Assembly (NCBI GenBank): GCA_001784175.1
Contig: MFPR01000022.1
Span: 1 to 35,200, forward strand
Length of the DNA: 35,200 bases
Reading direction: 5' to 3'
Source of the DNA: Candidatus Lindowbacteria bacterium RIFCSPLOWO2_12_FULL_62_27
Lineage (GTDB): Bacteria > Lindowbacteria > 2-12-FULL-62-27
A program made the translations under genes and the position numbers. Shown here in pieces: positions 1 through 30,200 of the stretch. The notes under the pieces are model-generated. The model had not been told where the DNA came from and made no database searches. It saw nothing but the letters and a program-made list of their open reading frames with translations. The first letter of the stretch is position 1. Each line of letters opens with the position of its first letter.

Positions 1-3000
1 CCCAGCCCGCGCCCAGCGCCGCCGGCGCTTTCGACGCCGGCACCCGCCGCCGGTCCGTGTACACCACCGTCCGCGCGTCGTCCGTGTCGCCCGGGCGGGT
101 CGACACCAGGATCACGTACATGCCGTCGCCCGCCGTCAGCGGGATTGATTGCGTGAGACCGCCGGAATCGGTCGTCGTGCCCGAGGGGTTGGCGACTTCG
201 GTGCCCTCATACTCAACCTTGAAATTCACGATCGCGTTCGGCACTCCTTCGCCGGACGAATCCTTGACGGTGACCTGAAACGCCGCCGACCCGCCGCTCG
301 GGACCATCTGGTGCGCGCCGCTGTCGATGATGGCCGAATCGCCGCCGACGCCGGCCGCGACCATCGTCGCGGTCATGGTCCGCAGATCGCCGGACGGTGT
401 GTCGATGTAGGTCACGCGGATCTGGTCGGACGCGCGCACCAGGAGCTTGCCGCTGTTGGGTGTGTCCGACGCCATTGTCGTCATCATGATCTTGCCGGAA
501 AAGACCGGCGAGTCCACGCTGATCTCCGTACACGTCACCGTTTCCGTTTCCGTGCCCAGCGTCAGGTTCACGATCGTCACCGTACAGGTCTGGACCACGC
601 CCGGGTCCGTGTTCGGGTCCGAGTCGTTCACTTCCACCGACACGCTGTCGCCCGCGCGCACCTTGATGTACGCCGCCGTCGCGCCCGTGTCGCTGACAAA
701 CCGCACGCCGCCTGACCCGCCGAAGATCGGGTTCACTTTGGAGACGTCCGACATGAACCCCTCCAGATTCGCGCCGTTGAACGTGCTCGAGTCGAACGCC
801 AGCACGCGGTAATAGTAGACGCTGCCCGGGACGAGGTCGGTGTCGATCAAAAACGTGTCGCCCGCCGCCGTATCAGGCAGGGGCGCGAGGAGCCGCCAGT
901 TCGAGGTGTCGTACAGGTTTCTCAAACGGAATACGCGGTATCCGGCGATTTCCGGGGCGCTGCCGTCCTCCTCCTGCGAGGGAGGCGACCACCGGATGAG
1001 GTTGCGGTTCGGCACGTTGTTCTCGATCACCACGCCGGTCGGCTTCCTCGACGCGCTCGAATCGCCGCTCGCGCGCGTGTCGACGGGGGCGAACCGGAAA
1101 GATTGCGCGACAAATCCGCTGCTGCGACTTTTCCTTTTGATCTCCTCTGAATCGGTTGTTCCAAAATAATTATAGTTGGCGGTGGGGAAGCCGCTGACGA
1201 ATACGAAGGAGTCGGAAATATTGTAAAGGTTGTTCCACTGAATCTCTCCGGTACTGAGCCCCCCGCTGATAGCGGTGTCGGCGTTGGAAATATCGTTGGC
1301 ATGGATGGTGTGGCCAAACCCCGGAGCTGATACCGCCAACCGGACGTTACGGATATTGTTTCGGACAATGCTGCCCGAGTTGCCGTTCAGATAAATCCCC
1401 CGCCAGGCCCCCCGAACGATGTTGTCCGCGATCAATATTCCGTTGGCGGACGACGACACCTGCCAGACCACGGTCGCCGCGCTCGTGCCGGTCACGTTTT
1501 CGGCGTAGCAGTTCCGAATCATTGCGTTGGCGCCGTCCACTTGGACGACCGCTTGGGAGAAATTGACGGCCGTGCAGTGCTCAACCGTGATGTTCGCGGC
1601 GCCGGATTTGCCGAACAATCCGTAGGCGGCGTTCCGGACGGTCACGTTGCGGATGATGAGCGGCTGGCCGGCGTTGGATTGGTTCGCCACGAGGATCTTG
1701 ACACCGGTCGACGAATCCCGGCCGTCCACCACGAATCCTTCGATCCGCGCACTGCTGTCCACCGTGAACATCGCGCCCGTCAGGCCCGACGTCTCGCCGC
1801 TCCACGTCACGGTCGGGAACGTGTCCCCGCCGCCGCCGTTGTCGGTTCCGAACAGAGCCTTGCGCGAGATGAGGGTGAGACCGCTGTCGATCGAATAACC
1901 GGTGTCGGAAATGGAATAGCTGTCACGCATGGATTTGAACACGATGATGGTGTCGAATCCGTTCGACGGGTCGAGCGCGGACAGCGCGGAATCGAGCGAC
2001 GGGAACGCCGCGATCGGGCTGTCCGCACTAGGCTGCGTGGCCTGGCCCGAGTCGCTCAGATAGACGGTCATCGATCCGAGATCGCAGAACGAGCCGCCGG
2101 GCGTCGCCTGGAAGCTGTCGGTGAAATAACTTTCGTTCGGGAAGGGCGTTGCGGCGTCAAAGGCGGTCAGGCGGTAGAAATACGTGACGCCGTTGGTCAC
2201 CGCCTGGTCCACATAAGTGGTGTCGGCCGAGGGCCGCTCAGTCAAAAACGCGTTGCCTTTCCAGTCCCGCTCGGCCGGATTCGTCGTCCGGTAAATCCTG
2301 AATCCCGTATGCCCAGGCGCCGCCTCGCCCGCCTCGTTCACGGTCGGCGCGGTCCACCGGACCTTCACGGCCCCCGCGCAGATCGACGACGCCCAGAACG
2401 CGCCCGCTGTCTCGTACGGCGCAAGGCTGTCGCCGGACACGCTCGTGTCGACCGGCGCGAATCGCGGCTGGGTGTCGGCGGCGTATGCCAATCCCCCCTT
2501 GTCCAATCCATCCCACACGAGGCCAAAGAGTGTGCGTTTGGTCACGATATTGTCGTTCCAGTCGCCTTCATTCGTCGTGTCCATGTAATTTCGCCAGAAA
2601 AAGTTGGTCGCCACCTGGCCGTTGGCCAGGAATATCCCGTAACTGTCGGGCTTCAAGACATTGTTGCGAATAAACCGGTTGCCGCCCGGCGGATTGAGCG
2701 CTCCTTTGTCAATGTAGATGGCATAGCGGTCGCCATGCGACTCGTTCTGAATAAACGTGTTGGTGTCGGAATTCGCCAACACATAAAATCCGGCGGTCGT
2801 GTCGTTTTCCGCCGACAGATTGCGCGCGAGGGTGTTCTGCGTGCTCATGTCCAGCGTGAAGCCTTCGGTGTTGTACATCGCGATGTTGCCGGTCACCGCG
2901 TTGCCCGTGGCCGACGACAGATAGATGCCGCGGTAGTTGCCCATCATCGTGTTGCCGCTGATCGTGTTGTTCGAAGACCCGGTAACATAAATGCCCTGGA

Positions 3001-6000
3001 CGCCGTTGGAAATGACGCTGTTGCCGCTGATGGTGTTGCCCGCGGCGTTGACCGAGATGCCGATCGTCCCGTTGGCCCTCACGGTATTGCCGCTGACCGT
3101 GTTGCCGGATGAAACGATCCTGATCCCGTTACCGGTGTTAGAGTCGACCACACAATTGCTGACCGTGTTGGTGTCAGAGCCCGCGCCAAGATAGACGCCG
3201 ATGCTGCCGTTGCCGCTGATGCTGTCGCCGCTCACGATCGAATTCGTGACGGCGTCCAGAAATACTCCGTGATACCCGCCCGTCACGCCGATGTTTCTGA
3301 TCACCATGCCGGTTTGCGTGTCCGCGTATATGCCGTAGAGTCCGGCCGTCGAGATCGCCCCTGGCGGGTCGATGACGCTGCGGTTCGAATCCACGCCCTC
3401 GATACAGATATAGTCGGTATCGATCACGACGGTCTCCGCGTACGTGTTGCGGTCGATCAGGACCGTGTCGAATTGCTGGGTGTCGGCCGGAATTGCCTGG
3501 AGGGCGCGGGTGATGGTCTTGAACGGATAGTTCGGATGCCCCGTGAACGTGTCGGCGCCGGTGTCCTTGTCGACGTACCACACCGGACCGCCCCAGTAGG
3601 GGACGGCGACGACCGCGACTTTCGTGTCCGTGAAAAACGACTGATTGACGACCGTGGACGCATCGAAGCTCGTCAGCTTGTAATAATAGGTGTTGCCGAT
3701 GGCGACGTTCGTGTCCGTCCAGGTCGTGTCCGACGCGCCGGTGGTCTTGACAAGGAGAACGGAGTTGGCCCATTGGGTCGTGTCGACCGCGTTGAGAAGC
3801 CGGTATATTTTAGCGCCGGCGAATCCGCTCAGGCTCTGCGTGTCCTCGTCCGCCGTCGGAATCGCCCACGTCAGCGTCACCGACACGCCGCTCGAGGTGT
3901 CCACCGTCACGTTCTGCGGCTCCAGCGGCGCGCGGGTGTCCGCGCCGGCGGCGGTGTCGACGACGCCCAAGCGGTAGGGCCGGAAGGTCGACGCGGTGTC
4001 GACGAACTTCGCCGAGATCGTCACCTCGTCCGTCGTGCCGAACCAGTTGCGTTTCATCGTCTGCGTCAATCCCGCCTTGTTCAGCACGCTGCTCACGGCG
4101 TTGCCGGTGAGGTTGTTGTGGGCAAGGATGTTGTTGAAGGCCGCGCCGTTGATGAGGACGCCGGTGTCGTTGCCGGAGATGTCGTTCAGCCGGACGCCGT
4201 TGGTGTCGGAGGCGTCGATGTAAAGGCCGGCCTGGACGTTGGATTTGATCGCGTTGTTCCAAAACGTGTTGAGGTTGCTGGCGCTTGAAATCCAGACGCC
4301 GTATTCCCTGTTGCCGGTGATGACGGAGTTCCGGACGACGTTGTTTTTCGACCCGCCGGTCAGCAGGAAGCCGTCAAACACATTGGAGGTAGCGGCGTTG
4401 CCGGTGAGGGTGTTGCCGTTGGCGGCGGAAAGTTCAATACCGGCGCTGAAGTTTCCGGAGGCCGCGTTGTTCTGAAGGGTATTGCCGTGACTGCCGTCCA
4501 CCACGATGCCGGTCAGGCCGTTCGAGTCGGCCGCGCAGCCCGTGACGGTGTTGGTGTCGGCGCCGTTAAGAAGATAAATGCCGTTGTTTCCGTTATCGCT
4601 CGCGCTGTCGCCGGATAGGGTCGAAAGATCGACGTTGCTGAACTTGATCCCGTCATACGCGCCGCGCACGGCGACGTTGCGGATGGTGACGCCGCTCCGG
4701 CCGGAGGCGTAAATGCCGTAGAGATCGGGCTGCGTTCTGGGACCCGGCGGATCGATCACGGTCGAGGCGGAGTCCTTGCCGATCAGATACAGATAGTCGA
4801 TATTGATGCTCGCGACGGCGGTTTCGGTCGCCGTGGGATTGACGTGCGAGTCGTACAGCCCGGCGTCGACAAACACGCTGTCGCCGGAAGTCGAGAACTG
4901 CAGGGCGCGCGAGATCGTCCGGAGCGGTTTGCTCGCCGTGCCCTCGCCCGCCGACGTGTCCGACCCGGCCGCGTAGGTGAAACTGTCGCCGGAGGTCGAG
5001 CCGTCGTTCACGAACCAGCTCACGCGGCTCGAATGCACCGCGCTGTCGCCGGGCTGGGAGTCGGAGTAAAAGCTTTCGTTCTTGAGCGGCGCGGCGGTGT
5101 CGTAGGCCGTGACACGGTAGTAATACGCGCGCCCCAGAACCACGTTCGTGTCCTGAAACCGCGTCGTTGTGCTGATCGCCAGCGATATCCAGGACGACGT
5201 GTCTCTGATTCCGCTCCGGTAAATCCCGTACGCCAGCACGCCCGGAGACCCGCCCATACCCTCTTCATTGGTGTTCACCGCGCTCCATTCCAGCACGATC
5301 GACGTGTCGTTTGAGATGATCGCCACTGTGTCCGGAGATTCCGGCGCGGTCGTGTCGGCGCCGGCGGCGGTGTCGACCATGCCGAGACGGTAGGGTTGAT
5401 ACTGGATCCCGTTGGTGGCCGACGTATCGTAAATCCGGCGCTGAATGGTGACCGAGTCGGCCGATCCCCACCAGTTGCGGGTGAAATCGAACGCGAAGCT
5501 CGTGACATTCTTGACGCCCGAATCGGGCCGGGCGTCCGAGCCGCGGAGATTGTTTTTGGCGAAGAGATTCGAACGCGAGTTTCCCGTGAGGGACAAGGCC
5601 CAACCACCGTTCGAATCCACCTGATTCTGAATCATCCGGTTGGATTGCGCCCCAACGAAACGCGCGCCGTCCAGCGTGTTGCTGAAACTGAGATTGCCCG
5701 TCAGGATGTTGCTGTCCGAACTGCTCACGTCGAATCCGTACTGCGAATTTTTGATGACGGTATTGCCGCTGAACACGTTGCGGTCGCTGCCGGAGGTCAG
5801 CCGGAAGCCGCTCAAGGCGTTGTTCGAGACGGAATTGTTTAGAAAGGCGCACGTGTCGGCTGAGGACAGAAAGAATCCGTTCGCGTTGGACATGCTGGTG
5901 TTGTTGGACAGCGTATCGCTGTTCGATCCGTCCACGTCGAATCCGCCGGCGCTGTTGGACGTGGCGGTGTTGCCGGTAATGACGTTGCCGTTGCTGGAAC

Positions 6001-9000
6001 CGTTCAGCCGGATGCCGTCATTGGAATTGCCGGTCACGGTGTTGCCGCTCAACGTGTTGAAACTGGAAGATGTCAGCGTGATTCCGTCGCCAGGCGTGTT
6101 GGAGGCGGCGGTGTTGGCGGAAAGAACGTTTGAATTCGACTGGGTCAGAACAATACCGTTGCCGTTGGATGCCGCGTAATTTCCGGAGATCGTGTTCCCG
6201 GCCGACGCGCTCAGTGAGATGCCGGTTCCCTGGTTGCTTTGGACGGTGTTGGACGAGAGGACATTCGTGTCCGAGCCGTTTTTAAGAATCATCCCCGCGC
6301 CGTCGGGGTAGGGGTCCCCGCCGAGCGTGGTCAACTCCACAGTGACGTTCTCGATGCGCGAGTTCGTGACGCCCGACCACTCGATGCCGATCAGACAAAT
6401 TTGGACCCGCAGGTTCCGGATCAAGAGTCCCGTCTGCGTGTCGGCCTGAATGCCCCTCATACTGTCGCTCGCAAGATCGTCGTTGGGATTGATCACGGTT
6501 GCGCTCGAATCCTTGCCGATGAGACTCACCCGGTCGGTGTCGATCGTCAGCGTTTCGTTGTAGGTTCCGGAGTCGATGTAAATCGTGTCGCCGGCCGACA
6601 CGAATTTCAGCGCGCGGCTGATTCTGAGGAACGGGCTCGACCTCTGCAAGCCCGTGTTCGTGTCGGCGCCGGCGGCGGTCGTGTAGGAGTCGCCGATGGT
6701 GAAGCTGTCGTTGACGTACCAGACGTTCGGCAGGGTCGTGTCGAGGCTGGGGACGACGCTCAAGGTGTCGGTGAAGACAGACTCGTTGAAGAATCCTCCG
6801 GTCAAGGTTTCGGATGCGGAGACGCGGTAGTAATAGGTGAGGCCGTCGGTCACGGCGAGGTCCACGTAATTCGTCTGGCCCGACGCCACGCTCGCCCGAA
6901 ACGCGTTTCTCCAGTCGCTCGTGTCCGGCGTCGAGATCAGGCGATAGATGCGGTACTCGCCGAACGCGTCCGGCGTGCCGCCGTCCTCATCGAAGTCCGG
7001 CGTGTCCCACGAGACCGTGACCTGGCCGCCCGTGCCGCTGACGCCGTTCAGCGCGAACGTGTCGGGCTTGCCGGGCGCGGTGGTGTCGGACTCGTCGGCG
7101 CTGGTATCCGGAGGCGTGGTGAGGTGCGGGAAAATCTTCACGGATCCGTCGGCAGCCATTTTCGACAGGATCGCGTTCATGTCGCGGATGCCCCACCAGT
7201 TGCGGCGCGCGTCGAAGTTCGGCGAGGAGCCCATGTCCAGCAGCGTCGAGCCGATGTTGACGAGACTGTTTTTGGCGAACGTATCGGCGCCCGCGCCCAA
7301 TAGCCAGACGCCGGTGTCGGAATTATAAATCTGGTTGTGGTAAATGTGGTTCTGTCCGCCCGTCGAGACGAATTCTGTCGCCATGTTGGCGTCGCGCACG
7401 ATGTTGTCGCGGACGACGTTGCGGGCGGTGGAAGTCTTGAGCTTGATCCCGTGGCCGTGGCCGGTCGGGTGCTTCTGCCGCTCGACGGTGTTTCTGTAGA
7501 TGAGGTTGTTCTGGCTTCCGTTATCGAAGTGGATGCCGTCGCGGACGATGTCCGCAATGTGATTGTATTTCACCGTCGTGTAATGCGCGCTGTCGCCGAC
7601 AATACCGTTGTAAACGTTCCGGATCTCCATATTCCGCACGAATGCGCCGGAACAGGAATTCGGCAGAAACACGCCGTTATGTTCCAGCGCGTTCGCCAGT
7701 ACGCCTGCGACGCTCGTGCGGGTCGAGTCGATGCCGTCGAGGAACAGGCCCTCGACGATCGTGTTGGTCCACACCTTGAGAATCGTTCCCGTATCGAAGG
7801 CGACGCGCGGCAGAGTGTCGAATACCGGATCGGTCCCGATGATTCGCTTCACCGCGATGATCTTCACGCCCGTGTCGTTCGTCAGGTCCAGTTGCTGGAA
7901 ATAGGAATCGCCGCCGGGCCGGGCGAAAACCACGATCGTGTCCCAGCCGTTGTCCGGGCGGACCGCCGACAGCGCCTCGTTGATGTTGCGGAAGGCCTTC
8001 GTCGTGTCGTACGCGCCGGGGTTGGTCGAATCGCCGAAGGACGAGACGTACACAAGCGCCGCGCCGGTGTCGAACCAGGCCGGCGTCACCGATTTCGTGT
8101 CGGTGAAGAAACTTTCGTTCTCAAACGGGGTGAGGCCGTCCAGGGCGCTGAGCCGGTAGTAGTACTTCGTGCCGTTGGTCAGGCCCGTATCGACAAATGA
8201 ATTCTTTCCGGCCGGCACATCCTTGATCAGCGCGGAATCCCAGTGGGTCGTATCCGGAACGGCCAGCCGGAAAATGCCGACGCTCGTGAACCCCGACAGC
8301 GACGCCGAATCCTCATCCTGCGTCGGCGTGTCCCACGTGATGAGCGCGGTCTCGCTGCCAGCGTGGATCACGATCGACGTGTCGAACACGTAGGGCGCGC
8401 GGGTGTCGGCGCCGGCCGCGGTGTCGACCGGGGCGAGGCGGTAGGGCTTGAAGGCCGACGCGGTGTCGTAGAATTTCGCCGAGATCAGGGTCTCCTGCGT
8501 CGTGCCCCACCAGTTGCGGTTGAAGGTCTGAGCGGCGGAGGCCGGGCTGAATACGTTGTAGACGGTGTTGTTGGCCACGTTGTTCCGGGTGAAGACGTTT
8601 CCGGCGCCGGAATTCTGGATCCAGATGCCGGTGTCGTTCGACCGGAATTCGTTCTGGTAGACAATGTTCGAGTTGGACGCCACCAGGCCGAATCCGGACT
8701 GGGTGTTGGAATCCGAGAGGTTGTTGCGGACGAGGTTCCCGTGGGAATTGATTTCGATATAAATTCCGTGCTTGTTGCGGCGGGCGATGTTCCGGGTGAT
8801 GACGTTATTGCGGGAACTGGAATTCAAATGAATCCCCTGGGAATTTTCCTCGGCGATGTTGTTGTCGATCGTGTTGTTGAAACAGTTGGTCACCATGTAC
8901 AGGCCCTGGTTGAGGTTCGAGATCAGAAGGTTGTTGGAGATCGTATTGGAGTCACAGCCGTTCTGGAGATAAATGCCGCGGCCGACGTGGTCGCTGAGGC

Positions 9001-12000
9001 TGTCGCCGGTGATCGTGGAGGCGGTGACATTGAAAAAGCGTATCCCCTCGGTGGCGCCGGTGACGCCGAGATTCTTGATGAGAAGCCCCGTCTGCGTATC
9101 CGCATAGATGCCGTTGCCCGACGCGGGATCGATCACCGTCGCGTTGGAGTCCTTGCCGATCAGGCTGACGGAATCGACGTCGATGACGACCGTCTCGGCA
9201 TAGACGCCGCGGTCGATGAAAATCGTGTCGCCCGGCGTCACGAATTGAAGCGCCTTCGTGATCGTCCGCAGGGGCTGCTGCTTCGTTCCCTTCCCGCTCG
9301 CGTCCGATCCCGCCGCCGCGGCCCAGGAGTCGCCCGAGGTCGAATCGTCGTTGACATAGATTTCGACGGCCGCGCTCAGGACCGCGCTGTCGGAGGGCTG
9401 GGAGTCCGAAAAGAACGACTCGTTCTCGAACGGCGATGCCGTGTCAAACGCCGTCACCCGGTAATAGTACTTGCGGCCCAGCACGACATCCGTATCCTGA
9501 TACCGGATGCCGGTCGCCTGACCCACCTTCATCCACGACGACGTGTCTTTCACCTCGCTGCGGTAGACCCGGTAGCCCGACAGCGCGACGTTGCCGCCGT
9601 TGACCTCCTCCAACGCCGCCACCGCGCTCCACTCGAGGATGATCGACGTGTCGGACGGCGCGCTGAGGATCGCCACCGTGTCCGGCGCCTTGGGCGCGGT
9701 CGTGTCGGCGCCGGCGGCGGTGTCGACGGCGCCGAGGCGGTAGGGCTGCCAGGCCGAAGCGGTGTCGCCGAGTTTGGCCTTGATCGTCACCGAATCGGCG
9801 GAGCCGAACCAGTTGCGGCGCAGGGTCTGGGCGACGTCGGTCTGGTTGTAAATATTCTTGACGTTGTTGTTCGCGATATTGTTTTTGGCGATCAGGTTGT
9901 TCGTCGCGGCGTCCGATATCCAGATGCCGGAATCGTTGGCGGCGATGTCGTTCTGCAAGACCACGATCGACTCGGCGTTCTCCAGCCGGAGGCCGGCCTG
10001 GGTGTTGGACCGGATGAGATTGTTGCTGACCGTCAGGTCGGTGCTCGCCGAAATATACACGCCGAACTGCCCGTTCGACCGGGCGATGTTGCCGGTGATG
10101 AGAAGTCCGGTGTCCCCGCCGGTAGCGTCAATGCCGCTGGCGAGGTTCGATTGAACGGTGTTGCCCTGGATGAGGATGGAGACGCCGGCGTTGATGAAGA
10201 TGCCGTCCTGGGTGTTCAAGTTGGCGGTGTTGTTGAGGATCGTGTCGAGCGCCGATCCGTCCACGAGAATGCCGCCGACGGAGGAGTTCGCGTTGGCCGA
10301 GTTGTTGCTGACGGTGTTCAGGTTGGACCCCATGTGGAGATAAATGCCGTTGACGTTCGAATCGGCGATGTTGTTCGTGATCATGTTGTTGTGGCTGGTT
10401 TGGAGGTAGATGGCGGTGGAGTTCGAGTCCATGGTGTTCCCGCTGATGGTGTTGGAGTCCGCCGGATTCAGATGAACGCCGTGGGTGGCATTCTGACGCG
10501 CGCCATTATTGCTGACGGTGTTCCCGGCGGAGTTCCCGGACAGCAGAATCCCGGCGGCGCCGTTCAGATTCACGCTGTTGTTGCTGATCGCGCACCCGGC
10601 GCCGGCCTCGATCTCCAAGCCGTCGCTGGTGTTCGACCAGACCGCGTTGCCGGTGAGGGTGTTCGTGTCGGACCCATTGATCAGATAGACGCCGCGGTTG
10701 CCGTTCGAGCTGAAACTGTCGCCGCTCAAGGTGGCCCGGTCGACGTTGATGAAATAGAGGCCGCGGTTGGCGCCGGTCACGCCAAGCGTCTTGATCAACA
10801 GCCCGGTCTGGGTGTCGGCGTAAATGCCGTAGAGGCCGCTGACCGTCTTCGCCCCCGGCGGGTCAATCACGGTCGACGCCGAGTCTTTGCCCACGAGCGT
10901 GATCGAGTCCTTGTCGATGTTGACGCCCGCCGTCTCGGCGCCGTTGACGGTCACGTACGAGTCATACAATCCAGCGTCAATCCAAATCGTGTCCCCCGCC
11001 GTCGCAAACCGCATCGACATCGGGATCGTCCGGAACGGTTTGGCCGCCGTGCCCAGCCCCCACGAGGTGTCGCTCCCCGTCCCGCTTGTGTACACATCGC
11101 CCGTTACGCTCGTGTCGTTCACGTACCAGTTCACCTGCGAAGCGAACATCGCCGTATCCCCCGGCTGAGAGTCGCTGTAGAAACTCTCGTTCACCGTCGT
11201 CGATGTGTCATACGACGTCACGCGGTAGTAGTACGTCAGCCCAAGCACGACATCCGTGTCCTGATACCTGATCCCGCTCGTCACCTGCGCCACCTGTATC
11301 CACGACGACGTGTCTTTCGTCCGACTGCGGTAGACCTTGTACCCGCCAAGCGCGATGTTGCCGCCGTTCGACTCCTCAAGCGCCCCGACAGCCGCCCACT
11401 CGAGGATGACGGACGTGTCGCTCGGCAAGCCGCCAATCACCGCCACCGAATCCGGCGCGCGCGGCGACGTCGTGTCCGCGCCCGAGGTCGTGTCCACCGC
11501 GCCGAGCCGGAACGGTATGTAAGAATCAACCGATGAGGTAAACTTTGCCTTGATGGCAGCCGAATCCGTCGTGCCATACCAATTGCGGAGAGCATTTTGA
11601 TTGTTGCCGGTGTTGTTGTCGACAAATGCCCTGGCGCTTGAGATGATATTATTCTTCGTAACCTCATTTCCCCGGATGGTTCCGCCTCCCGTGATATAAA
11701 CGCCGGTATCCCCTCCCACGATTTCATTGGCATAAACAACATTGCTGTCTCCCACCAAAGCCACACCCGCATTGATATTCGACCTTATTTGATTGAACGA
11801 GATTGTGTTCATCGGACTGCCGTTGTTCAACACGATACCGTAACCGTTTGCATTGACGATGTTATTCGTTACGGTGTTGACCAACGGCCCGAAAATAAAC
11901 ACGATGCCGTATTCGGCGTTTGCATTCGCCGTGTTTCCGCTGATGGTGTTTTGGGTACTGTAGTATCCCAACTCGATGCCATACATCCCGTTGGAATTGC

Positions 12001-14266
12001 ATGTGTTGTTGCTGACAATTGTATTTGTGCATCGGCTCATGGAGAGGCCGACCTGCCAATTCGAGTTGAACGTATTTGAACTTATCGTGTTGCCGTAAGG
12101 TTTCCCAAGTATCAAGTCGCATCCGGTTCGATTGAAACTGGCAATACTGTTGACCACCGTATTGGTATCGGAACCGTTCACCAGGTCAATGCCGGTGCCG
12201 TCACAGTATGTGAAACTGCTGTTGTTGATCGTCGAACGATCGACCGAATTGAGATAAACGCCGTAGTAGGCGCCGGTCACACCGATATTTCTAATCGACA
12301 GATTCACCTGCGAATCGGCAAAGATTCCGTAGATCACCTGATCGGAGGAGTCGCCCGGAGGGTCGATGACGGTCGAAGCAGAATCCTTGCCGATCAGAGT
12401 AATCGAATCCTTGTCAATATGGACCCCGGCGGAATCATTTCCGGAGATGTAGACATACGAGTCATAGATCCCCGCGTCGACGTAGATGGTGTCGCCCGTG
12501 TCCGCGTACTGCATGGCCTTCGGGATGCTGGCAAACGGCCGCGCCGCCGTCCCCAGCCCCCACGACGTGTCGCTTCCCGTCCCGCTCGTGTACACATCGC
12601 CCGCTGCGCTCGTGTCATTCACGTACCAGTTCACCACGGGCGATGTCGCTCCGATGCTCGACACTTGCGAGTCGGAATAGAAACTCTCGTTGGCATAAGG
12701 CGACGCCGTGTCGAACGCCGTCACGCGGTAGTAGAACGTCGCGGCGCCCGTCGCGCTCGTGTCCTGATACCGAATGGAACCTGCCGCCACCGTTCCCATC
12801 AATGTCCACGACGACGTGTCCGCGATGGTGCTGCGGTAGACTTTGTATCCCGACAGCGCCGTGCCGCCTGCCATCGTCTCCTCGTTGGTCGTTACCGCCG
12901 CCCACTCCAGGATGATGGACGTGTCATTGTTCAGAACCGCGACCGTATCCGGCGCGTCCGGCGCAGTCGTGTCGGCGCCCGCCGTGGTGTCTACCGCGCC
13001 GAGGCGGAACGGCGTGTATCCGATGCGGTTGACGTAGCCCGTGTCGAACATTTTGCGTCCGATGGCCACCGTGTCCGCCGTGTTCCACCAGTTGCGCGCG
13101 AAATCGAAAGTTTTGCCGGTCCAGTTGTACACCCCGCTGTCGGGATTCGTCGCCGACGTCACGATGTTGTTCTTCTGCACAGTGTCCGACGACGATGTGC
13201 CGGTGATAAAGATCTGATACCGCGTATTCAGCCGCACGTCGTTTAGACTCACCGTGTTGTTCGAAGAAGAACTTAGATAGATTCCATAGTATGCGTTCGA
13301 ACTGAGCGTGTTGTTCGTGATCATGTTGTTGCTCGAACTCGTAGTCAAATACAGGCCGACGCTGCTATTCGACGTGATCGCGTTGTTCGTCACCGTGTTG
13401 TTCGAACCCCCGGTCAGATTGATGCCGGTGACGCCTGAAGGGATCGTGTTGTTCGATATCGTGGCGCCGCCCGAGCCGTTAGCCAGTTGGATTCCGACGC
13501 TTCCGTTCGAAGTGAGCGTGTTGTTCGTCACCGTGCTGCCGTTCGCACCCCCGTTCAGCATGATGCCGTAGAGGTTCGAAGCGACCGTATTGTTCGTCAC
13601 CGTGTTGCTGTTCGAAGACGAAAACACATCGATGCCGCTGTTTGTATTCGACACCGCCGTGCTGTTTTTGACTGTGTTGGTGTCGGACCGGAAGTACAGG
13701 TAGATGCCGTCGTTGCCGCAGGAACTTGCGCTGTCGCCGTCGATGGTCGAGTAGTCCACGTTATAGAAATGAATCCCGTTATACGCCCCCGTCACGCCGA
13801 TGTTGCGGATGAACAGATTGATCTGCGTGTCGGCGTAGATGCCGTACAGACCGGACTGCGTCTTGGGCCCGGGCGGATTGATGACCGTCGCGCCCGAGTC
13901 CTTGCCGACGAGCGTGATGGAGTCCTTGGTGATGTTGACGCCCGCCGTTTCCGTGCCGTTCACCGTCACGTACGAGTCATACAGTCCCGCGTCGATGTAG
14001 ATGGTGTCGCCGATGGCCGCGGAATCGATGGCGCTCTGAATGCAGCGAAACGGCTCGGCGGCGGTGCCGGGCTGGGTGTCTTCGCCGTTGGACGACGTGT
14101 AGACGTCGCCGGCGGCGCTGGTGTCGTTCACGTACCAGTTGGCGGCCTCGGCTCTCGAAGTTAAAAGTGAAAAGCTAAAAGTCAACAGCGATAAAGGCAG
14201 GATGAGCGGCAAGCGGACCAGAAAGGAGGAAAAGGGGACGGATACTAACTTTTTAACATTTCGCAT
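1..14266 (-). CDS. Giant secreted surface protein (>=4755 aa, 3' end outside window): signal peptide, nine right-handed beta-helix (NosD/pectin-lyase-like) + FN3-like modules, then Ig-like domains
   Basis: Manual translation from the ATG at 14266 gives MRNVKKLVSVPFSSFLVRLPLILPLSLLTFSFSLLTSRAEA|ANWYVNDTSAAGDVYTS...GDTIYIDAGLY. The same frame (first codon base = 1 mod 3) reads ...TVVYTDRRRVPASKAPAALGAGW at positions 70-2. The ORF track has no minus-strand ORF in this frame, which fits an unbroken frame with no stop in the window; I spot-checked segments rather than every codon. N/S/T/G-rich 'GIYL..S.SNT..GNT..SN' turns are typical of beta-helices. Alternative in-frame ATGs lie at 14305 and 14347, with an upstream TAA at 14374. 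Confidence 0.92.
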   Translation of the reverse strand, partial: MRNVKKLVSVPFSSFLVRLPLILPLSLLTFSFSLLTSRAEAANWYVNDTSAAGDVYTSSNGEDTQPGTAAEPFRCIQSAIDSAAIGDTIYIDAGLYDSYVTVNGTETAGVNITKDSITLVGKDSGATVINPPGPKTQSGLYGIYADTQINLFIRNIGVTGAYNGIHFYNVDYSTIDGDSASSCGNDGIYLYFRSDTNTVKNSTAVSNTNSGIDVFSSSNSNTVTNNTVASNLYGIMLNGGANGSTVTNNTLTSNGSVGIQLANGSGGATISNNTIPSGVTGINLTGGSNNTVTNNAITSNSSVGLYLTTSSSNNMITNNTLSSNAYYGIYLSSSSNNTVSLNDVRLNTRYQIFITGTSSSDTVQKNNIVTSATNPDSGVYNWTGKTFDFARNWWNTADTVAIGRKMFDTGYVNRIGYTPFRLGAVDTTAGADTTAPDAPDTVAVLNNDTSIILEWAAVTTNEETMAGGTALSGYKVYRSTIADTSSWTLMGTVAAGSIRYQDTSATGAATFYYRVTAFDTASPYANESFYSDSQVSSIGATSPVVNWYVNDTSAAGDVYTSGTGSDTSWGLGTAARPFASIPKAMQYADTGDTIYVDAGIYDSYVYISGNDSAGVHIDKDSITLIGKDSASTVIDPPGDSSDQVIYGIFADSQVNLSIRNIGVTGAYYGVYLNSVDRSTINNSSFTYCDGTGIDLVNGSDTNTVVNSIASFNRTGCDLILGKPYGNTISSNTFNSNWQVGLSMSRCTNTIVSNNTCNSNGMYGIELGYYSTQNTISGNTANANAEYGIVFIFGPLVNTVTNNIVNANGYGIVLNNGSPMNTISFNQIRSNINAGVALVGDSNVVYANEIVGGDTGVYITGGGTIRGNEVTKNNIISSARAFVDNNTGNNQNALRNWYGTTDSAAIKAKFTSSVDSYIPFRLGAVDTTSGADTTSPRAPDSVAVIGGLPSDTSVILEWAAVGALEESNGGNIALGGYKVYRSRTKDTSSWIQVAQVTSGIRYQDTDVVLGLTYYYRVTSYDTSTTVNESFYSDSQPGDTAMFASQVNWYVNDTSVTGDVYTSGTGSDTSWGLGTAAKPFRTIPMSMRFATAGDTIWIDAGLYDSYVTVNGAETAGVNIDKDSITLVGKDSASTVIDPPGAKTVSGLYGIYADTQTGLLIKTLGVTGANRGLYFINVDRATLSGDSFSSNGNRGVYLINGSDTNTLTGNAVWSNTSDGLEIEAGAGCAISNNSVNLNGAAGILLSGNSAGNTVSNNGARQNATHGVHLNPADSNTISGNTMDSNSTAIYLQTSHNNMITNNIADSNVNGIYLHMGSNLNTVSNNSANANSSVGGILVDGSALDTILNNTANLNTQDGIFINAGVSILIQGNTVQSNLASGIDATGGDTGLLITGNIARSNGQFGVYISASTDLTVSNNLIRSNTQAGLRLENAESIVVLQNDIAANDSGIWISDAATNNLIAKNNIANNNVKNIYNQTDVAQTLRRNWFGSADSVTIKAKLGDTASAWQPYRLGAVDTAAGADTTAPKAPDTVAILSAPSDTSIILEWSAVAALEEVNGGNVALSGYRVYRSEVKDTSSWMKVGQATGIRYQDTDVVLGRKYYYRVTAFDTASPFENESFFSDSQPSDSAVLSAAVEIYVNDDSTSGDSWAAAAGSDASGKGTKQQPLRTITKALQFVTPGDTIFIDRGVYAETVVIDVDSVSLIGKDSNATVIDPASGNGIYADTQTGLLIKNLGVTGATEGIRFFNVTASTITGDSLSDHVGRGIYLQNGCDSNTISNNLLISNLNQGLYMVTNCFNNTIDNNIAEENSQGIHLNSSSRNNVITRNIARRNKHGIYIEINSHGNLVRNNLSDSNTQSGFGLVASNSNIVYQNEFRSNDTGIWIQNSGAGNVFTRNNVANNTVYNVFSPASAAQTFNRNWWGTTQETLISAKFYDTASAFKPYRLAPVDTAAGADTRAPYVFDTSIVIHAGSETALITWDTPTQDEDSASLSGFTSVGIFRLAVPDTTHWDSALIKDVPAGKNSFVDTGLTNGTKYYYRLSALDGLTPFENESFFTDTKSVTPAWFDTGAALVYVSSFGDSTNPGAYDTTKAFRNINEALSAVRPDNGWDTIVVFARPGGDSYFQQLDLTNDTGVKIIAVKRIIGTDPVFDTLPRVAFDTGTILKVWTNTIVEGLFLDGIDSTRTSVAGVLANALEHNGVFLPNSCSGAFVRNMEIRNVYNGIVGDSAHYTTVKYNHIADIVRDGIHFDNGSQNNLIYRNTVERQKHPTGHGHGIKLKTSTARNVVRDNIVRDANMATEFVSTGGQNHIYHNQIYNSDTGVWLLGAGADTFAKNSLVNIGSTLLDMGSSPNFDARRNWWGIRDMNAILSKMAADGSVKIFPHLTTPPDTSADESDTTAPGKPDTFALNGVSGTGGQVTVSWDTPDFDEDGGTPDAFGEYRIYRLISTPDTSDWRNAFRASVASGQTNYVDLAVTDGLTYYYRVSASETLTGGFFNESVFTDTLSVVPSLDTTLPNVWYVNDSFTIGDSYTTAAGADTNTGLQRSSPFLRISRALKFVSAGDTIYIDSGTYNETLTIDTDRVSLIGKDSSATVINPNDDLASDSMRGIQADTQTGLLIRNLRVQICLIGIEWSGVTNSRIENVTVELTTLGGDPYPDGAGMILKNGSDTNVLSSNTVQSNQGTGISLSASAGNTISGNYAASNGNGIVLTQSNSNVLSANTAASNTPGDGITLTSSSFNTLSGNTVTGNSNDGIRLNGSSNGNVITGNTATSNSAGGFDVDGSNSDTLSNNTSMSNANGFFLSSADTCAFLNNSVSNNALSGFRLTSGSDRNVFSGNTVIKNSQYGFDVSSSDSNILTGNLSFSNTLDGARFVGAQSNRMIQNQVDSNGGWALSLTGNSRSNLFAKNNLRGSDARPDSGVKNVTSFAFDFTRNWWGSADSVTIQRRIYDTSATNGIQYQPYRLGMVDTAAGADTTAPESPDTVAIISNDTSIVLEWSAVNTNEEGMGGSPGVLAYGIYRSGIRDTSSWISLAISTTTRFQDTNVVLGRAYYYRVTAYDTAAPLKNESFYSDSQPGDSAVHSSRVSWFVNDGSTSGDSFTYAAGSDTSAGEGTASKPLRTISRALQFSTSGDSVFVDAGLYDSHVNPTATETAVASINIDYLYLIGKDSASTVIDPPGPRTQPDLYGIYASGRSGVTIRNVAVRGAYDGIKFSNVDLSTLSGDSASDNGNNGIYLLNGADTNTVTGCAADSNGLTGIVVDGSHGNTLQNNAASGNFSAGIELSAANGNTLTGNAATSNVFDGFLLTGGSKNNVVRNSVITGNREYGVWISSASNLNTFWNNAIKSNVQAGLYIDASDTNGVRLNDISGNDTGVLINGAAFNNILAHNNLTGNAVSSVLNKAGLTQTMKRNWFGTTDEVTISAKFVDTASTFRPYRLGVVDTAAGADTRAPLEPQNVTVDTSSGVSVTLTWAIPTADEDTQSLSGFAGAKIYRLLNAVDTTQWANSVLLVKTTGASDTTWTDTNVAIGNTYYYKLTSFDASTVVNQSFFTDTKVAVVAVPYWGGPVWYVDKDTGADTFTGHPNYPFKTITRALQAIPADTQQFDTVLIDRNTYAETVVIDTDYICIEGVDSNRSVIDPPGAISTAGLYGIYADTQTGMVIRNIGVTGGYHGVFLDAVTNSIVSGDSISGNGSIGVYLGAGSDTNTVSNCVVDSNTGNGIRIVSSGNTVSGNTVRANGTIGISVNAAGNTISGNSVISNGVQGIYVTGSSNNTISGNTMMGNYRGIYLSSATGNAVTGNIAMYNTEGFTLDMSTQNTLARNLSAENDTTAGFYVLANSDTNTFIQNESHGDRYAIYIDKGALNPPGGNRFIRNNVLKPDSYGIFLANGQVATNFFWRNYMDTTNEGDWNDNIVTKRTLFGLVWDGLDKGGLAYAADTQPRFAPVDTSVSGDSLAPYETAGAFWASSICAGAVKVRWTAPTVNEAGEAAPGHTGFRIYRTTNPAERDWKGNAFLTERPSADTTYVDQAVTNGVTYFYRLTAFDAATPFPNESYFTDSFQATPGGSFCDLGSMTVYLSDSGQATQPSADSPIAAFPSLDSALSALDPSNGFDTIIVFKSMRDSYSISDTGYSIDSGLTLISRKALFGTDNGGGGDTFPTVTWSGETSGLTGAMFTVDSSARIEGFVVDGRDSSTGVKILVANQSNAGQPLIIRNVTVRNAAYGLFGKSGAANITVEHCTAVNFSQAVVQVDGANAMIRNCYAENVTGTSAATVVWQVSSSANGILIADNIVRGAWRGIYLNGNSGSIVRNNIRNVRLAVSAPGFGHTIHANDISNADTAISGGLSTGEIQWNNLYNISDSFVFVSGFPTANYNYFGTTDSEEIKRKSRSSGFVAQSFRFAPVDTRASGDSSASRKPTGVVIENNVPNRNLIRWSPPSQEEDGSAPEIAGYRVFRLRNLYDTSNWRLLAPLPDTAAGDTFLIDTDLVPGSVYYYRVLAFDSSTFNGANLEGFMSDVSKVNPIFGGSGGVRFVSDTGATAAYIKVRAGDSVSVEVNDSDPNTDPGVVQTCTVTIVNLTLGTETETVTCTEISVDSPVFSGKIMMTTMASDTPNSGKLLVRASDQIRVTYIDTPSGDLRTMTATMVAAGVGGDSAIIDSGAHQMVPSGGSAAFQVTVKDSSGEGVPNAIVNFKVEYEGTEVANPSGTTTDSGGLTQSIPLTAGDGMYVILVSTRPGDTDDARTVVYTDRRRVPASKAPAALGAGW
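790..14140 (-). repeat. Nine tandem modules of about 1.3-1.8 kb within giant 1
   Basis: Module heads (W/Y)YV(N/D/S)-type at about 14137, 12630, 11130, 9360, 8053, 6722, 5017, 3580 and 2066. Most end with a variant of NWWG.TD / PYRLGAVDT..GADT.AP / GY.VYR..DTS.W / YYYRV.A.D...NESF..D. Segments 12541-12635 and 11041-11135 are near-identical DNA exactly 1500 bp apart. Confidence 0.85.
14144..14266 (-). other. Sec signal peptide of giant 1 (about 41 aa)
   Basis: Basic n-region (MRNVKK), Leu/Phe/Ser h-region and an A-E-A cleavage motif immediately before the first WYVND module. Confidence 0.75.
14161..14188. repeat. Degenerate heptamer tandem inside the signal-peptide coding sequence
   Basis: TTAAAAG-TGAAAAG-CTAAAAG-TCAACAG on the + strand; AT-rich against a GC-rich background. 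Confidence 0.55.
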
Positions 14267-14306
14267 CAGAGCACCGTCTGGATGTCCGGGAAAGGGGTCA
14301 AGCATT

Positions 14307-14385
14307 AAGTTATTGAAGTTATTGTTCCAGCGAGGAAGGGATTTCATAGGGCTGCGGTGCCAGCCCCTAAGTTATTGAAGTTATT
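14307..14385. repeat. Direct repeat TAAGTTATTGAAGTTATT (x2) and a REP-like hairpin
   Basis: Identical 18-mers at 14307-14324 and 14368-14385. Imperfect hairpin TAGGGCTG-cggtgc-CAGCCCCTA at 14347-14369. Confidence 0.7.
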
Positions 14386-15369: not shown

Positions 15370-15493
15370 ATTCGGGGGGCTGGCACCATTCGGATGGGGA
15401 CAGACCGGCAACGGCGACCGGGCGATCTCCATCGGTCCGGCGTACACCCCGCGCAGTCAATCCCCTCCGGCGCCCCCTCTTGAAGCCGGCCAT
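15311..15493 (-). CDS. Possible 60-aa leader ORF upstream of the RAYT gene
   Basis: Strong RBS GAAGGAG 8 nt before ATG 15493. Its stop overlaps the RAYT start (ATGA), and TTGACA lies at 15567-15562. No recognisable family. Confidence 0.25.
   Translation of the reverse strand: MAGFKRGRRRGLTARGVRRTDGDRPVAVAGLSPSEWCQPPEWCQPLSYLSFSGARMGISR
15358..15393. repeat. Perfect 18-bp tandem duplication GGGGCTGGCACCATTCGG
   Basis: Copies at 15358-15375 and 15376-15393, followed by a related GGGGACAGACC. Confidence 0.85.
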
Positions 15494-17341: not shown

Positions 17342-17344
17342 CTC

Positions 17345-27292: not shown

Positions 27293-30200
27293 TCAGCGGA
27301 CGATCGCGAGCTTGTCGATGAGTTTGTTGCCGCTCGATTCGAGGATGTAGATGTAGACGCCCGAGCCGACTTTCTGGCCGTGCTTGTTGGTGGTGTCCCA
27401 CTTGAGCGTCATGTTGAGGCCGGCCTTGCCGGGTTCGGCGAGTTCCCGGATGAGGCGGCCGGCGACGTCATATATCTTGAGTGTGACCGGCGCGTCGGCG
27501 GGCAGACTGTACTTGAAGGTCATCTGGCCGGTGGCGGCGTCCGGGCCCGGATTCGGGTAGACGAACGACTGTTCCTTGTCGAGCGCGGCCGCAAGGAAGG
27601 CGGCGAGATAGTCCGGCAACCCGACGGCCAGGGTCAGTTTGACCGACGAGGACAGCATGACGGCGGTGGAGGCCGCGCTCTTCATGTCGACCGGGCCCGA
27701 CGGACCGCCGATGAGCACGGCGCCGAATTCGCCCGGCACGTTGCTCGCGTCCCACTTCAGCGTCACGGGGCCGGTCGGGCCTGTGACGACCACCGGCCAC
27801 GCGGCCGCCGTTTTCACCGGCGCGCCGATGCTCGCCGCATAGTATTTCCCGGATTCTTCGGCCGGTGATTCCGGCGACGAGGGTTCGCCGATCCATACCT
27901 GCACGTCGCCCGCCATGCCCGGGGCCTTCCAGAGATCGTTCATGTCTTCGTCATTCCGCGCCGCGGGGGCAACGCCCACGAAGTTGTACTCGTCCCGCAC
28001 CTGACTGTCGCCGGTGTAGGCCATGAGCTGGAGCCGCCAACTTGAAATATCCCCTCCCCCCTGCGAGTAGACGGGGGCCGATTGCTTGACCTTGGTCGAC
28101 TGCGGCATGCGCTTGTTGCCGCCGTAATAGACGATGGTGCAGGCCGTGTTGATCTTGACCCAGTATCCGACCCACGGTTTGATCTGCAGAGAATCCTCGC
28201 CGGTGGACGTCAGGGACGCGAGATACTGCCCCGCGCTGTGATCCCGCCACTGGAGTTTGGTGTCGATGTACGTGGTGGTGCGCAATTGGGACAACGGGTA
28301 CTGACACCCTGTTGCATCGGTTTCCACGTAGACGTCGTCAAGCCAGTTGATGAAGTGCGGGAACGGGTTGCCGATCATATTGGCGCCCGCGGTCATGATG
28401 GTTTTCGCGTAGCTGGCGGTGGACACCACGGGAGTCCCGAGAAGCCCGACGGACGTCGCCGACGTCGATTTGAACCAGTAGGCCTGGCCGGTGTCATATT
28501 TAGTGAACTCGCCGTTTGCCGAATTGTTCGGCGAGGCCTGGCCGGTAACCGATTTGTATCTATAAAAGGTCGCGTTCGAAGACGAGATGGTCGGATCGTT
28601 CGAATAGGACAGGCCCGTGCCGCTGTAAGACAACTGGCCAAGACCGGTGAGGGACTGGTCCGGCCGTTTGAAGGGCGAGAACATGACCCATGTGTTCGCC
28701 GGGACATCGCGCTTGTCGGTGTAGACCACGATTTGCGCCTGTCGGGAGCTCGCGCTCGTCGCCGTCACCACATAGATGCCGTTGCCGCTGCCGAGCGTCA
28801 GGGTGATCGACGACGTGAAGCCATTCGAGCCCGTCGTGGTGGACGACGTGGGAGACAACGTCGCGCCGCCGGCGGCGTTGGAGCCGTTATAATCGACGGT
28901 GTAGGACACGGTCGCGTTGGACACGGTGTCGCCGGTGGTGTCGTAGGCGGCGATCCTGAAGGTCATCGAGCCGCCCGCGCTCAGGATGTGGTGGTTGCCG
29001 GTGTCGAACACGAGCGAGTCGCCCGTCGTGCCGCCGCCTTCGATCGTGGCCGTCGCCGTGACCAGAATCAGGCGGGGGCTGTCCAGATAATTGACGCGGA
29101 CCACGTCGCCCGGCCGGACGAAAAGCTTGCCGCTGGCGGCGGCGGAGTGCGAGCTGCTGACCAGCGAGATCGGGAAACTCTCGCGGAAGACGCTTGCGTT
29201 GGCGCTGAGTTCGCCAAGGGTCGCCGTTTCGTATTCGGCGTTGCCCTCGGAGTTGAACGTCACATTTTCAAGCCAGACCTGCACGCTGTCCACGGCGCCG
29301 GTGTTCGCATTCGGATCCGTGTCGTTCACTTCGATCACGATGCTGTCATGCCGGATGGCCTTGTAGGTCGTCGCGACCGATCCGCCCTTCGTCAGCATCT
29401 GCACCGTGCCGAACCGGACGTTCGTGTCGGACCGGAAAGAGCCGGTGGCCGAATAGGCGCTGTTGTTGGCCAGATCGTCGATGGTCCTGACGCGCCAATA
29501 GTATGTGTCGATGTACAAATTCGTGACCGTGTCGCTGGTCCGCGCGCCGTCGATCGTGTCAGAGAAGGTGAGGGACGTAAAGTTGGTGTTCTTGGACACT
29601 TCGAGGGCGAACGAATCGATCCCCACGCTGTCCGAGCCGGCTGTCCACGACACCACAACCTGCGACACGGTCGTCTCGTGGCCGTTGACCGGCAGCATCG
29701 TGTCCGGCCGCGGCGCGTGGGTGTCGACGACGAATCCACGCGCGGTCGAGTGCGCGCTGACGTTGCCGAGATCGTCAATTGCGCGGACGTGCCAGAAGTA
29801 CGTGTCGTTGTAGAGAGGCGACGCGGTCCGGCTGGCGGTGGCGGCGTCGAAGGTGTCGTTGATGGCCATCATCGTGAAGTTGCTGTTCTTCGACAGCTCG
29901 ATCGCGTAGCTGTCCAAGCCTACGCTGTCGGAAACCGCAGTCCATGAGAGCACGATAGAGGTGTTCGTGGTCTCATGCGCGTCGGCCGGCTGGCTGAGCG
30001 TTGTGACGTTGACGAGAGTGTCGACGACGAATCCCCGCGTGGCCGAATTGGGGCCGACATTGGCCAGATCGTCGATCGCGCGGACACGCCAGAAATAGGT
30101 GTCGTTATACGTGCCCGTGATGTAATCGGTGGTCGCCGTGCCGTCGACGGTGTCGGCGAAGACGGTCGTGGCGAACGACGTGCCTTTGGACGCCTCGACC

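Follow-up and report, generated by a model that had tools for sequence, protein, structure and literature searches.

We analysed a stretch of 35,200 nucleotides of contig MFPR01000022.1 (assembly GCA_001784175.1), hereafter called the window. It carries most of a genuine minus-strand gene, about 5,200 codons long, which encodes one giant protein. The protein is laid out as a predicted signal peptide, nine modules, and a tail of 741 amino acids that ends in a type IX secretion system (T9SS) type-A sorting domain. Each module comprises a right-handed beta-helix and, after it, an FN3-like domain. As far as the sequence can tell, the protein would act as a surface-exposed, multivalent and mainly non-catalytic binding fibre, an explanation to which we attach moderate confidence.

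The minus-strand frame 2..14347 is open to the window edge, and the open-ended listing of open reading frames (ORFs) and its translation gave 4782 codons with 0 stops. The five competing frames over the same stretch contain 25, 63, 150, 170 and 223 stops, and the longest open run in 200 mononucleotide shuffles was on average 210 codons and at most 399. The GC content at codon positions 1, 2 and 3 of the giant frame is 0.50, 0.49 and 0.83. A database protein of 5237 amino acids (P0003) shares 4768 residues with the window translation, with a single mismatch (V/G at residue 1541; residues of the giant, here and below, are numbered from the ATG at 14347). This protein provides the 455 C-terminal residues past the window edge. 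Hence, the hidden 14.3-kb ORF and the length of about 5000 amino acids reported in the initial annotation both hold, and a check of the translated frame between 14266 and 2 for in-frame stops or frameshifts found 0 stops. The gene is indeed missing from the ORF track, because frames that run off the window edge are left off the listing by default. All remaining ORFs within 1..14347 are plus-strand or other-frame ORFs of at most 1097 amino acids. A contig profile scan with the window's last 333 codons gave 46 pattern matches, of which 0 were confirmed.

Long, repeat-rich genes are prone to misassembly, and the database record differs at one residue. That the gene is non-functional, being either a chimera of repeats created in the assembly or a pseudogene in decay whose frame is still open, nevertheless seems very improbable to us. 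The modules share only 23–53% pairwise identity and are too divergent for collapse or mis-joining, while the frame has 0 stops in 4782 codons, no shuffle stayed open for more than 399, and the codon-position GC signal is strong. Moreover, the order of the modules is collinear with that in a relative from another genome, and the same sequence exists as a protein record that was predicted independently.

Three ATGs are in frame, at 14347, 14305 and 14266. Copies of a repeated non-coding element, the AT-rich 18-mer AATAACTTCAATAACTTA at 14368-14385 and 14306-14323, contain or adjoin the first two. The third leads into MRNVKK, about 30 hydrophobic residues and AEA, and then into ANWYVND. Because the upstream ATGs sit at repeat copies and ATG 14266 yields a signal-like N-terminus, the latter is probably the best choice of start codon, as had been proposed from the start. 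It would open a signal peptide of 41 residues (MRNVKK...SRAEA, 14144..14266, minus strand), cut by eye before ANWYVND. In four relatives (P0009, P0010, P0014 and P0016), a signal-like N-terminus likewise runs directly into [WIY]YVND.

Within each module an N-cap, a right-handed beta-helix, a C-cap, a Thr/Pro linker and an FN3-like domain follow each other in this order. The count of nine modules was borne out by hidden Markov models (HMMs) built locally from the module alignment, which matched nine N-caps, nine C-caps and nine FN3-linkers; the FN3 motif [YF][YF]Y[RK] also occurs nine times. The head of a module comprises a strand and a helix, with the pattern [WI][YF]V[ND][DK] ... GDTIxID.G.Y ... 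[IV]GKDS. The helix body consists of coils of 22–23 residues with Asn ladders, and ends in the C-cap RNW[WFY]G...P[FY]RLGxVDT. A Thr/Pro/Ala/Asp linker then leads to the FN3-like domain, which closes with YYYR...NESF. Module lengths range from 435 to 589 amino acids, and this variation reflects the number of coils.

All nine modules lie on the minus strand, and seven of them are of type A. M1 (12644..14143, residues 69-568) has the full set of N-cap, beta-helix, C-cap RNWW, linker and FN3, and matches Beta_helix (1.5e-37), NosD (1e-27) and DUF1565 (8e-7); the stretch that was scanned and folded for this module, 12644-14152, includes three residues of the signal peptide. M2 (11144..12643, residues 569-1068) matches Beta_helix at 4.7e-33 and NosD at 8e-18. 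M3 (9377..11143, residues 1069-1657) has the longest helix, with 589 amino acids for the module (NosD 1.6e-39, Beta_helix 1.2e-38), and M4 (8072..9376, residues 1658-2092) has a short one (Beta_helix 4.6e-22, DUF1565 4e-10). M6 (5033..6736, residues 2538-3105) combines a long helix (Beta_helix 2.4e-49) with a weak match to AlgG, and M7 (3596..5032, residues 3106-3584) matches Beta_helix at 2.5e-38. M8 (2081..3595, residues 3585-4089; NosD 4.9e-33) is divergent, with a WYVDK head and a long insert before its FN3 domain.

The other two modules, M5 (6737..8071, residues 2093-2537; Beta_helix 7e-14) and M9 (722..2080, residues 4090-4542; Beta_helix 27.2 bits against a cut-off of 25.9, fn3 20.8 against 25), form a second subtype, type B, without WYVND and GDTIY. 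Their heads read VYVSS and VYLSD, followed by WDTIVVF and FDTIIVF, respectively, and M5 also carries an HGHGIKLK loop. Together with their orthologues they form a clade of their own in the module tree (support 1.0). The initial annotation had assigned a WYVND head and a GDTIY.D.G.Y motif to every module. This applies to part of the array: a WYVND-like head is present in seven of the nine modules (exact in four), with a different head in M5 and M9, and a GDTIY-like [TS][IV]x[IV]D is present in six and absent from the rest.

Profile searches point to the beta-helix fold. Pfam Beta_helix (PF13229) scored above its gathering threshold in all nine modules, in M9 barely and in the others with 52–168 bits; over the whole protein it matched 19 stretches (E 8.6e-190). 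NosD passed in eight of the nine modules, DUF1565 (PF07602, cut-off 20.3) in six with 25–40 bits, mainly over the N-cap, and the NCBIfam parallel beta-helix repeat TIGR03804 matched 20 stretches. Searched against PDB sequences, the module profile gave 12 distinct matches, including AlgG as the best (3e-9), NosD (7o0y, 2e-7), AlgE6 (1e-6), titin FN3 (6e-6) and the alginate lyase 6kfn (1e-5). A phmmer search of M5 against the PDB gave 0 matches at E<=1.

Two of the nine modules, M1 and M5, were modelled with AlphaFold2 (AF2), using only the nine modules as alignment, and both came out as right-handed helices with three sheets. The M1 model has a mean predicted local distance difference test (pLDDT) of 81.5 and a predicted TM-score of 0.78, with 239 residues at 90 or above. 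Over residues ~40–350 its 10-residue blocks score 84–98 (one block 81), and the helix, with about 13 coils, is followed by a low-confidence linker and then a 7-strand domain. The M5 model is weaker (mean pLDDT 65.5), with 72–88 in the helix body, a moderate FN3 domain, and values below 50 over the N-terminal ~110 residues. With Foldseek, M1 had 149 matches in the PDB at E<=0.001, among them the Det7 tailspike 6f7k (1.5e-8), the AlgE4 A-module 2pyg (TMt 0.62), the alginate epimerase/lyase 8jaz, PL6, RbmB and DFA-IIIase. M5 had 44 such matches, to beta-helix proteins and to FN3 domains (ROBO1 FN3, TMt 0.83). In the per-module Pfam scans, fn3 reached 20.6–20.8 bits (cut-off 25) and Ig_RIMBP2 19–21 bits (cut-off 27); the sum for Ig_RIMBP2 over the whole protein was 51.3 bits, yet no single stretch passed. 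The FN3 label is grounded in the modelled fold and not in a Pfam threshold. The description of the modules as beta-helix plus FN3, which had been put forward from the letters of the DNA, is supported by the nine Beta_helix matches, by the models of M1 and, less well, of M5, and by the structures that these models resemble.

After M9, the tail begins with an Ig-like region of 240 amino acids within the window (2..721, minus strand), which gave a weak Big_1 match (26.7 bits, cut-off 34.9); the other 455 amino acids lie past the window edge. According to P0003, the full tail of 741 amino acids consists of the Ig-like domain with the weak Big_1 match, about 380 amino acids without a family, and a C-terminal domain. 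The last 115 amino acids of P0003 match the T9SS type-A sorting domain TIGR04183 (32.3, cut-off 23), which for this gene falls outside the window. Six further proteins among the 15 matches of the length-matched search described below (P0005, P0008, P0009, P0013, P0014 and P0015) have a closely similar C-terminal end, ...K[LV]A[IV][IV]R. Given the predicted signal peptide and the TIGR04183 domain, a role at the cell surface is reasonable.

At its other end, the window cuts a second giant ORF (27293..35200, minus strand), with 20 FN3-like repeats of about 99 amino acids (…NDTYYWRVRA…). It has a paralogous tail with the same sorting domain (27293..29602, minus strand; TIGR04183 34.6, FlgD_ig 31.3 against 27). 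Aligned over 769 columns, the tails of the two giants show 52% identity, and 81 of the 90 terminal residues of the second giant are identical to the end of P0003. Hence, by sequence comparison, two giants with different bodies share one base. In a locus from another metagenome-assembled genome (MAG), L001, a giant ORF with this tail (33% over 647 amino acids) lies directly upstream of a beta-helix giant. The closest named relative of the tail is a protein from a Candidatus Lindowbacteria MAG, which is 88% identical (413/470 alignment positions) over the last 469 amino acids.

The domain of about 380 amino acids in the tail (P0003 residues 4768-5150; paralogue at 27563-28690, minus strand) matched no Pfam or NCBIfam family, and the ESM Atlas returned only unnamed look-alike clusters. 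It is 50–56% identical in five shorter proteins, one of which is the window's second giant, and 92% identical in a Candidatus Lindowbacteria MAG fragment. This domain may anchor these giants.

In a length-matched search, 15 proteins with 3–13 modules each were found among 1237 scored candidates, and most of them were labelled 'right-handed parallel beta-helix repeat-containing protein [bacterium]'. A contig profile scan with modules 1–3 found five loci, all in uncultured MAGs. Furthermore, a profile of the C-cap plus FN3 was searched against 1.84 billion representative proteins, with 34,572 matches at E<=0.001 and 1,144 at E<=1e-30. Among the best 150 of these matches, 46 had 2–9 C-caps and were true members, and 104 matched in the FN3 part only; 14 of the 46 true members share the sorting domain at their C-terminus. 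The window protein is thus a further member of a little-studied family that is already present in public databases under a generic name (P0004-P0015, P0097-P0099 and others). Its members share the N-cap with [WIY]YVND and GDTI, a helix of the NosD/PbH1 type, the RNWW C-cap, PxRLGxVDT, and FN3 with YYYR...NESF, and many of them share the tail and sorting domain of the window protein. They have 2–13 modules, so that nine is near the top. The two module subtypes, the tail with its sorting domain and the existing database relatives add to what the initial annotation had described. No description of this beta-helix plus FN3 family was found in the literature.

The history of the modules was studied with a FastTree phylogeny. 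It contains 85 modules, out of 87 N-cap hits in 13 proteins; P0016 and P0017 are not among these, and two modules of P0004 lacked a following FN3 hit and were excluded. Modules m1, m4, m5, m7, m8 and m9 of P0003 pair in order with m1–m6 of P0008, a complete six-module relative from another genome, with supports of 0.92–1.0. Identities to the P0008 partners are 45–67% for the five pairs from m4 to m9 (the m1 pair not included). M4 is 67% identical to P0008_m2 (support 1.0), M5 is 56% identical to P0008_m3 and 68% to P0005_m7, M8 is 51% identical to P0008_m5 (support 1.0), and M9 is 45% identical to P0008_m6 (support 1.0). M7 pairs with P0008_m4 (support 0.975), which is not its top-scoring outside match. 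The best outside matches of M1 and M3 are P0005_m4 (74%) and P0013_m2 (64%), respectively, and M2, M3 and M6 have no counterpart in P0008 in the module tree. The collinear pairing implies that the modules diverged before the genomes split and that each has been retained since. Judged from these comparisons, the array gains and loses entire modules.

The same comparisons bear on whether the protein is a structural coat or spacer without a specific ligand. Such an S-layer-like or glycocalyx-like brush would, together with the second giant, keep particles, phages and predators off the outer membrane. Several observations fit this idea. The two giants stand on a shared tail of 741 amino acids with quite different bodies, which suggests a common base with interchangeable stalks, and the number of modules varies from 2 to 13 among the relatives, as if length outweighed content. 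In addition, the giant contains much Ser, Thr, Gly and Asn and little Lys, Glu and His, a composition typical of inert repeat surfaces. However, positional orthologues are 45–74% identical, whereas neighbouring modules are 23–53% identical, which points to a constraint on each module rather than on bulk. We therefore regard a mere coat as improbable.

In the binding-fibre explanation, which we prefer, we infer how the protein is exported, how it is oriented on the surface, how long it is, and that it binds rather than catalyses. The chain would cross the inner membrane in a Sec-dependent manner via its N-terminal signal peptide, and the C-terminal type-A sorting domain would then direct it to a T9SS-like system for export across, and attachment to, the outer membrane. 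On the cell surface, the tail would lie next to the cell and module 1 outermost. Nine self-capped right-handed beta-helices, with flexible Thr/Pro-rich linkers and FN3 spacers, would then make a beaded fibre. The rise per coil of a beta-helix is 4.8 Å; if about 115 coils and nine FN3 domains are assumed, an extended fibre would be roughly 100 nm long. The initial annotation had spoken of a multivalent adhesion filament. The term filament needs qualification: beads on a string fits better, because each helix is separately capped and is joined to its FN3 domain by a low-confidence Thr/Pro/Ala/Asp linker. Each helix would bind its own ligand, most probably a polysaccharide or the surface of another cell. 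We read each helix as a binder of its own ligand because six of them match positional counterparts in the six-module relative; glycan binding or adhesion as such is suggested by the modelled fold.

Binding is favoured over catalysis by the pattern of conserved residues. The only positions of the helix body that are invariant across the nine modules are G149, N169, G243, N304 and N328. Catalytic acidic residues had been named as something to look for, but no acidic residue, and likewise no basic or His residue, is invariant in the helix body of the nine-module alignment. The motif DPH(D/E) is catalytic in AlgG and AlgE; 'DPH' has 0 occurrences in the 4782 amino acids of the translation, and YGIDPHD of AlgG aligns to GGFDV-D in M6. 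Because the invariant residues are only Gly and Asn, the DPH(D/E) motif is absent, and the cut-offs for NosD, AlgG and LIC10774 were failed, binding appears the better reading.

The main competitor is an array of several enzymes, in which some or all helices would be lyases, hydrolases or epimerases of different specificity on a surface-tethered chain, pictured as depolymerases against biofilm matrix, capsules, or plant and algal polymers, like several tailspikes on one string. This would fit the nearest solved sequences and structures, which are enzymes (AlgG, AlgE6 and 6kfn by sequence; Det7, AlgE4, 8jaz, PL6, RbmB and DFA-IIIase by Foldseek). It would also fit the conservation of individual modules across genomes, as expected if each had a substrate of its own, and the M5 group, which retains RDG[IV]HFD and HGHGIKLK on successive coils. 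The lack of an invariant acidic, basic or His residue and the DV-D in place of DPH(D/E) argue against such an array, as do the 34 bits for AlgG (NF038177, cut-off 700), the His content of only 0.7% of residues, and the empty phmmer search with M5. Moreover, as the AlgG alignment shows, what the modules have in common with enzymes is for the most part the repeat pattern that such coils have in general. On balance, we consider an enzyme array possible but somewhat unlikely.

Several points weigh against the binding fibre. Most of the solved beta-helices that resemble the models are enzymes (epimerases, lyases and tailspike depolymerases), and module-specific active sites could escape an alignment of all modules. 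The M5 orthologue group keeps its HGHGIKLK loop, which could be catalytic or metal-binding; a GH28-like reading of this HGHG loop was considered but is not claimed. The fold models cover two of the nine modules, with a mediocre model for M5 whose first ~110 amino acids have a pLDDT below 50, and the N-terminal signal peptide was judged by eye only. Furthermore, no T9SS component was found among the 21 ORF translations, including competing frames, at about 11 gene positions between the giants. The Lindowbacteria, the phylum of the nearest named relative, are listed by NCBI under candidate phyla and not in the Fibrobacteres–Chlorobi–Bacteroidetes (FCB) group, to which abstracts tie the T9SS: one calls the system specific to the FCB superphylum (PMC12398890), and another describes it among pathogens of that superphylum (PMC9170169). 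One preprint places Candidatus Lindowbacteria as the closest phylum to the Spirochaetes, and no paper joining Lindowbacteria with type IX secretion was found in the literature searched. Export by a T9SS is unproven, because the phylum lies outside the FCB group and the scanned ORFs of the window hold no machinery gene. Hence, the export route is the weakest and also the most interesting link of the model.

Among known systems, the secreted mannuronan C-5 epimerases AlgE1-7 of Azotobacter vinelandii and the periplasmic AlgG come close in several respects. Few structures match better than the AlgE A-module, no PDB sequence matches better than AlgG, and AlgE proteins carry more than one beta-helix module per secreted chain, with small beta-rich modules between them. 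However, the AlgE/AlgG motif DPH(D/E) is absent from the window protein, and the AlgE spacers are calcium-binding R-modules, whereas those of the window protein are FN3. The window protein also has nine helices and a C-terminal export signal of the T9SS type, and AlgE has one or two helices. Identity as a mannuronan C-5 epimerase was rejected (NF038177 34.1 against a cut-off of 700, and no DPH). NosD, a maturation protein of nitrous-oxide reductase, resembles the modules in its Pfam family (eight of nine modules) and in its structure 7o0y, but it is a single-domain periplasmic protein, unlike the nine-module giant. Identity as NosD was rejected as well: TIGR04247 reached 282.4 bits summed over 10 stretches, below the cut-off of 300. 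The scan of 21 ORF translations from the region between the giants found no nos genes. A leptospiral surface protein of the LIC10774 type was also considered and discarded (NF047854 52.7 against a cut-off of 380); the DUF1565 domain type is shared and the family is not.

The phage tailspike depolymerases (Det7 gp208 6f7k, Sf6 and CBA120 TSP2) were the top Foldseek matches by E-value, and in these proteins the beta-helix recognises a surface polysaccharide. They are trimers with one helix per chain, however, and their TM-scores against our models were 0.28–0.44, with root-mean-square deviations of 12–17 Å. No phage genes were found among the 21 window ORF translations scanned. PfbA of Streptococcus pneumoniae is described as a beta-helix surface protein that binds fibronectin, plasmin and plasminogen (PMC3718772), and it provides a precedent for a surface right-handed parallel beta-helix that binds rather than cleaves. 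In contrast to the window protein, PfbA has a single helix and is anchored to a Gram-positive wall, and no sequence match between the two was found. SprB of Flavobacterium johnsoniae is a very large repetitive surface protein with a T9SS C-terminal sorting domain. Its type of repeat differs from that of the window giant, whose host is probably not a member of the Bacteroidota. Far larger proteins with other architectures are described in a preprint on giant genes (10.1101/2023.11.21.568195), which concludes that giants often function in adhering to other cells.

A more far-reaching scenario, to which we give a low probability, combines several of these elements. A candidate-phylum bacterium outside the FCB group would mount interchangeable giant stalks by means of a T9SS-type sorting domain and the base of 741 amino acids, and one such stalk, with its nine individually conserved and differently specific helices, would be a multi-specific battery of glycan readers or depolymerases, with which the bacterium attaches to other cells or to matrix, or attacks them.

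Two copies of the repeated non-coding element AATAACTTCAATAACTTA occupy 14306..14385 (minus strand) just upstream of the start codon, and the upstream copy is extended by GGGGCTGGCACC. The repeated element had three matches in the window against 0 expected from 100 shuffles. The 30-mer AA[TA]AACTT[CA]AATAACTTAGGGGCTGGCACC forms an inverted repeat whose arms, at 14356-14385 and 15340-15369, are 93% complementary. As an element of about 30 nucleotides, AATAACTTCAATAACTTAGGGGCTGGCACC, it is present at 14356-14385 (minus strand), 14306-14323 (minus strand) and 15340-15369 (plus strand). The same 30-mer is found with 100% identity upstream of the beta-helix giant of L001, with two further copies nearby (L001 7515-7540, 8228-8255 and 8357-8386), and a 42-nucleotide version (88% match) lies upstream of a relative's gene at L002 1572-1613. 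Next to the right arm, the 18-mer GGGGCTGGCACCATTCGG is exactly duplicated in tandem (15358-15393, plus strand).

The arms bracket a Y1 transposase-like ORF (14409-15389, minus strand) with an IS200-like Y1 domain and a DnaA-C-like helix-turn-helix. It scored 62 bits with the model of the REP-associated tyrosine transposase (RAYT), below the cut-off of 80. Because its first 25 codons translate repeat-arm sequence, its true start is probably the Met at 15314. In terms of the REP/RAYT concept, which links repetitive extragenic palindromic (REP) elements to such transposases, the element and the Y1-like gene look like a REP-type repeat with its transposase, as far as their sequences go. The repeat element could also be regulatory. 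A scan for sigma-70 promoters and terminators upstream of the giant gene gave 0 sites, and Rfam gave 0 matches over the whole window. TGGCAC in the upstream element was inspected by eye as a sigma-54-like site, and this idea was dropped since the window copy does not match at the -12 element.

The remaining genes between the two giants include a run of RDD, SpoIIM, DUF58, DUF4350 and DUF4129 genes plus a second RDD gene (15609-22790 and 24535-25074, minus strand). We take this run to resemble the membrane sets that often lie beside MoxR-type ATPases; no ATPase was seen in the scan of the window ORFs. Two ORFs of 455 and 197 amino acids (22909-24512, minus strand) had no convincing family, with one weak B-box zinc-finger match below the cut-off. 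A FapA/DUF342 gene is located at 25159-26604 on the minus strand (Pfam 1.4e-65). The best outside match to it has no more than 49% identity and carries the label '[bacterium]', and its remoter matches include Treponema and Leptospira proteins.

These results imply that an ORF track that omits open-ended frames can conceal the largest gene of a window. The protein is a clear case of a modular family, represented in public metagenomes, with 2–13 self-contained beta-helix plus FN3 modules, many members of which have a T9SS-type sorting tail; specialists in bacterial surface proteins may not find this very surprising. The collinear retention of diverged modules suggests the testable idea that each helix has its own ligand. 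Moreover, the genome with this sorting domain has its nearest named relative outside the FCB group, which raises the question of whether T9SS-like sorting is more widespread than is stated at present. If the scenario of interchangeable stalks were true, sorting that depends on a C-terminal domain would extend beyond the FCB superphylum, and a single chain would do the job of a set of phage tailspikes.

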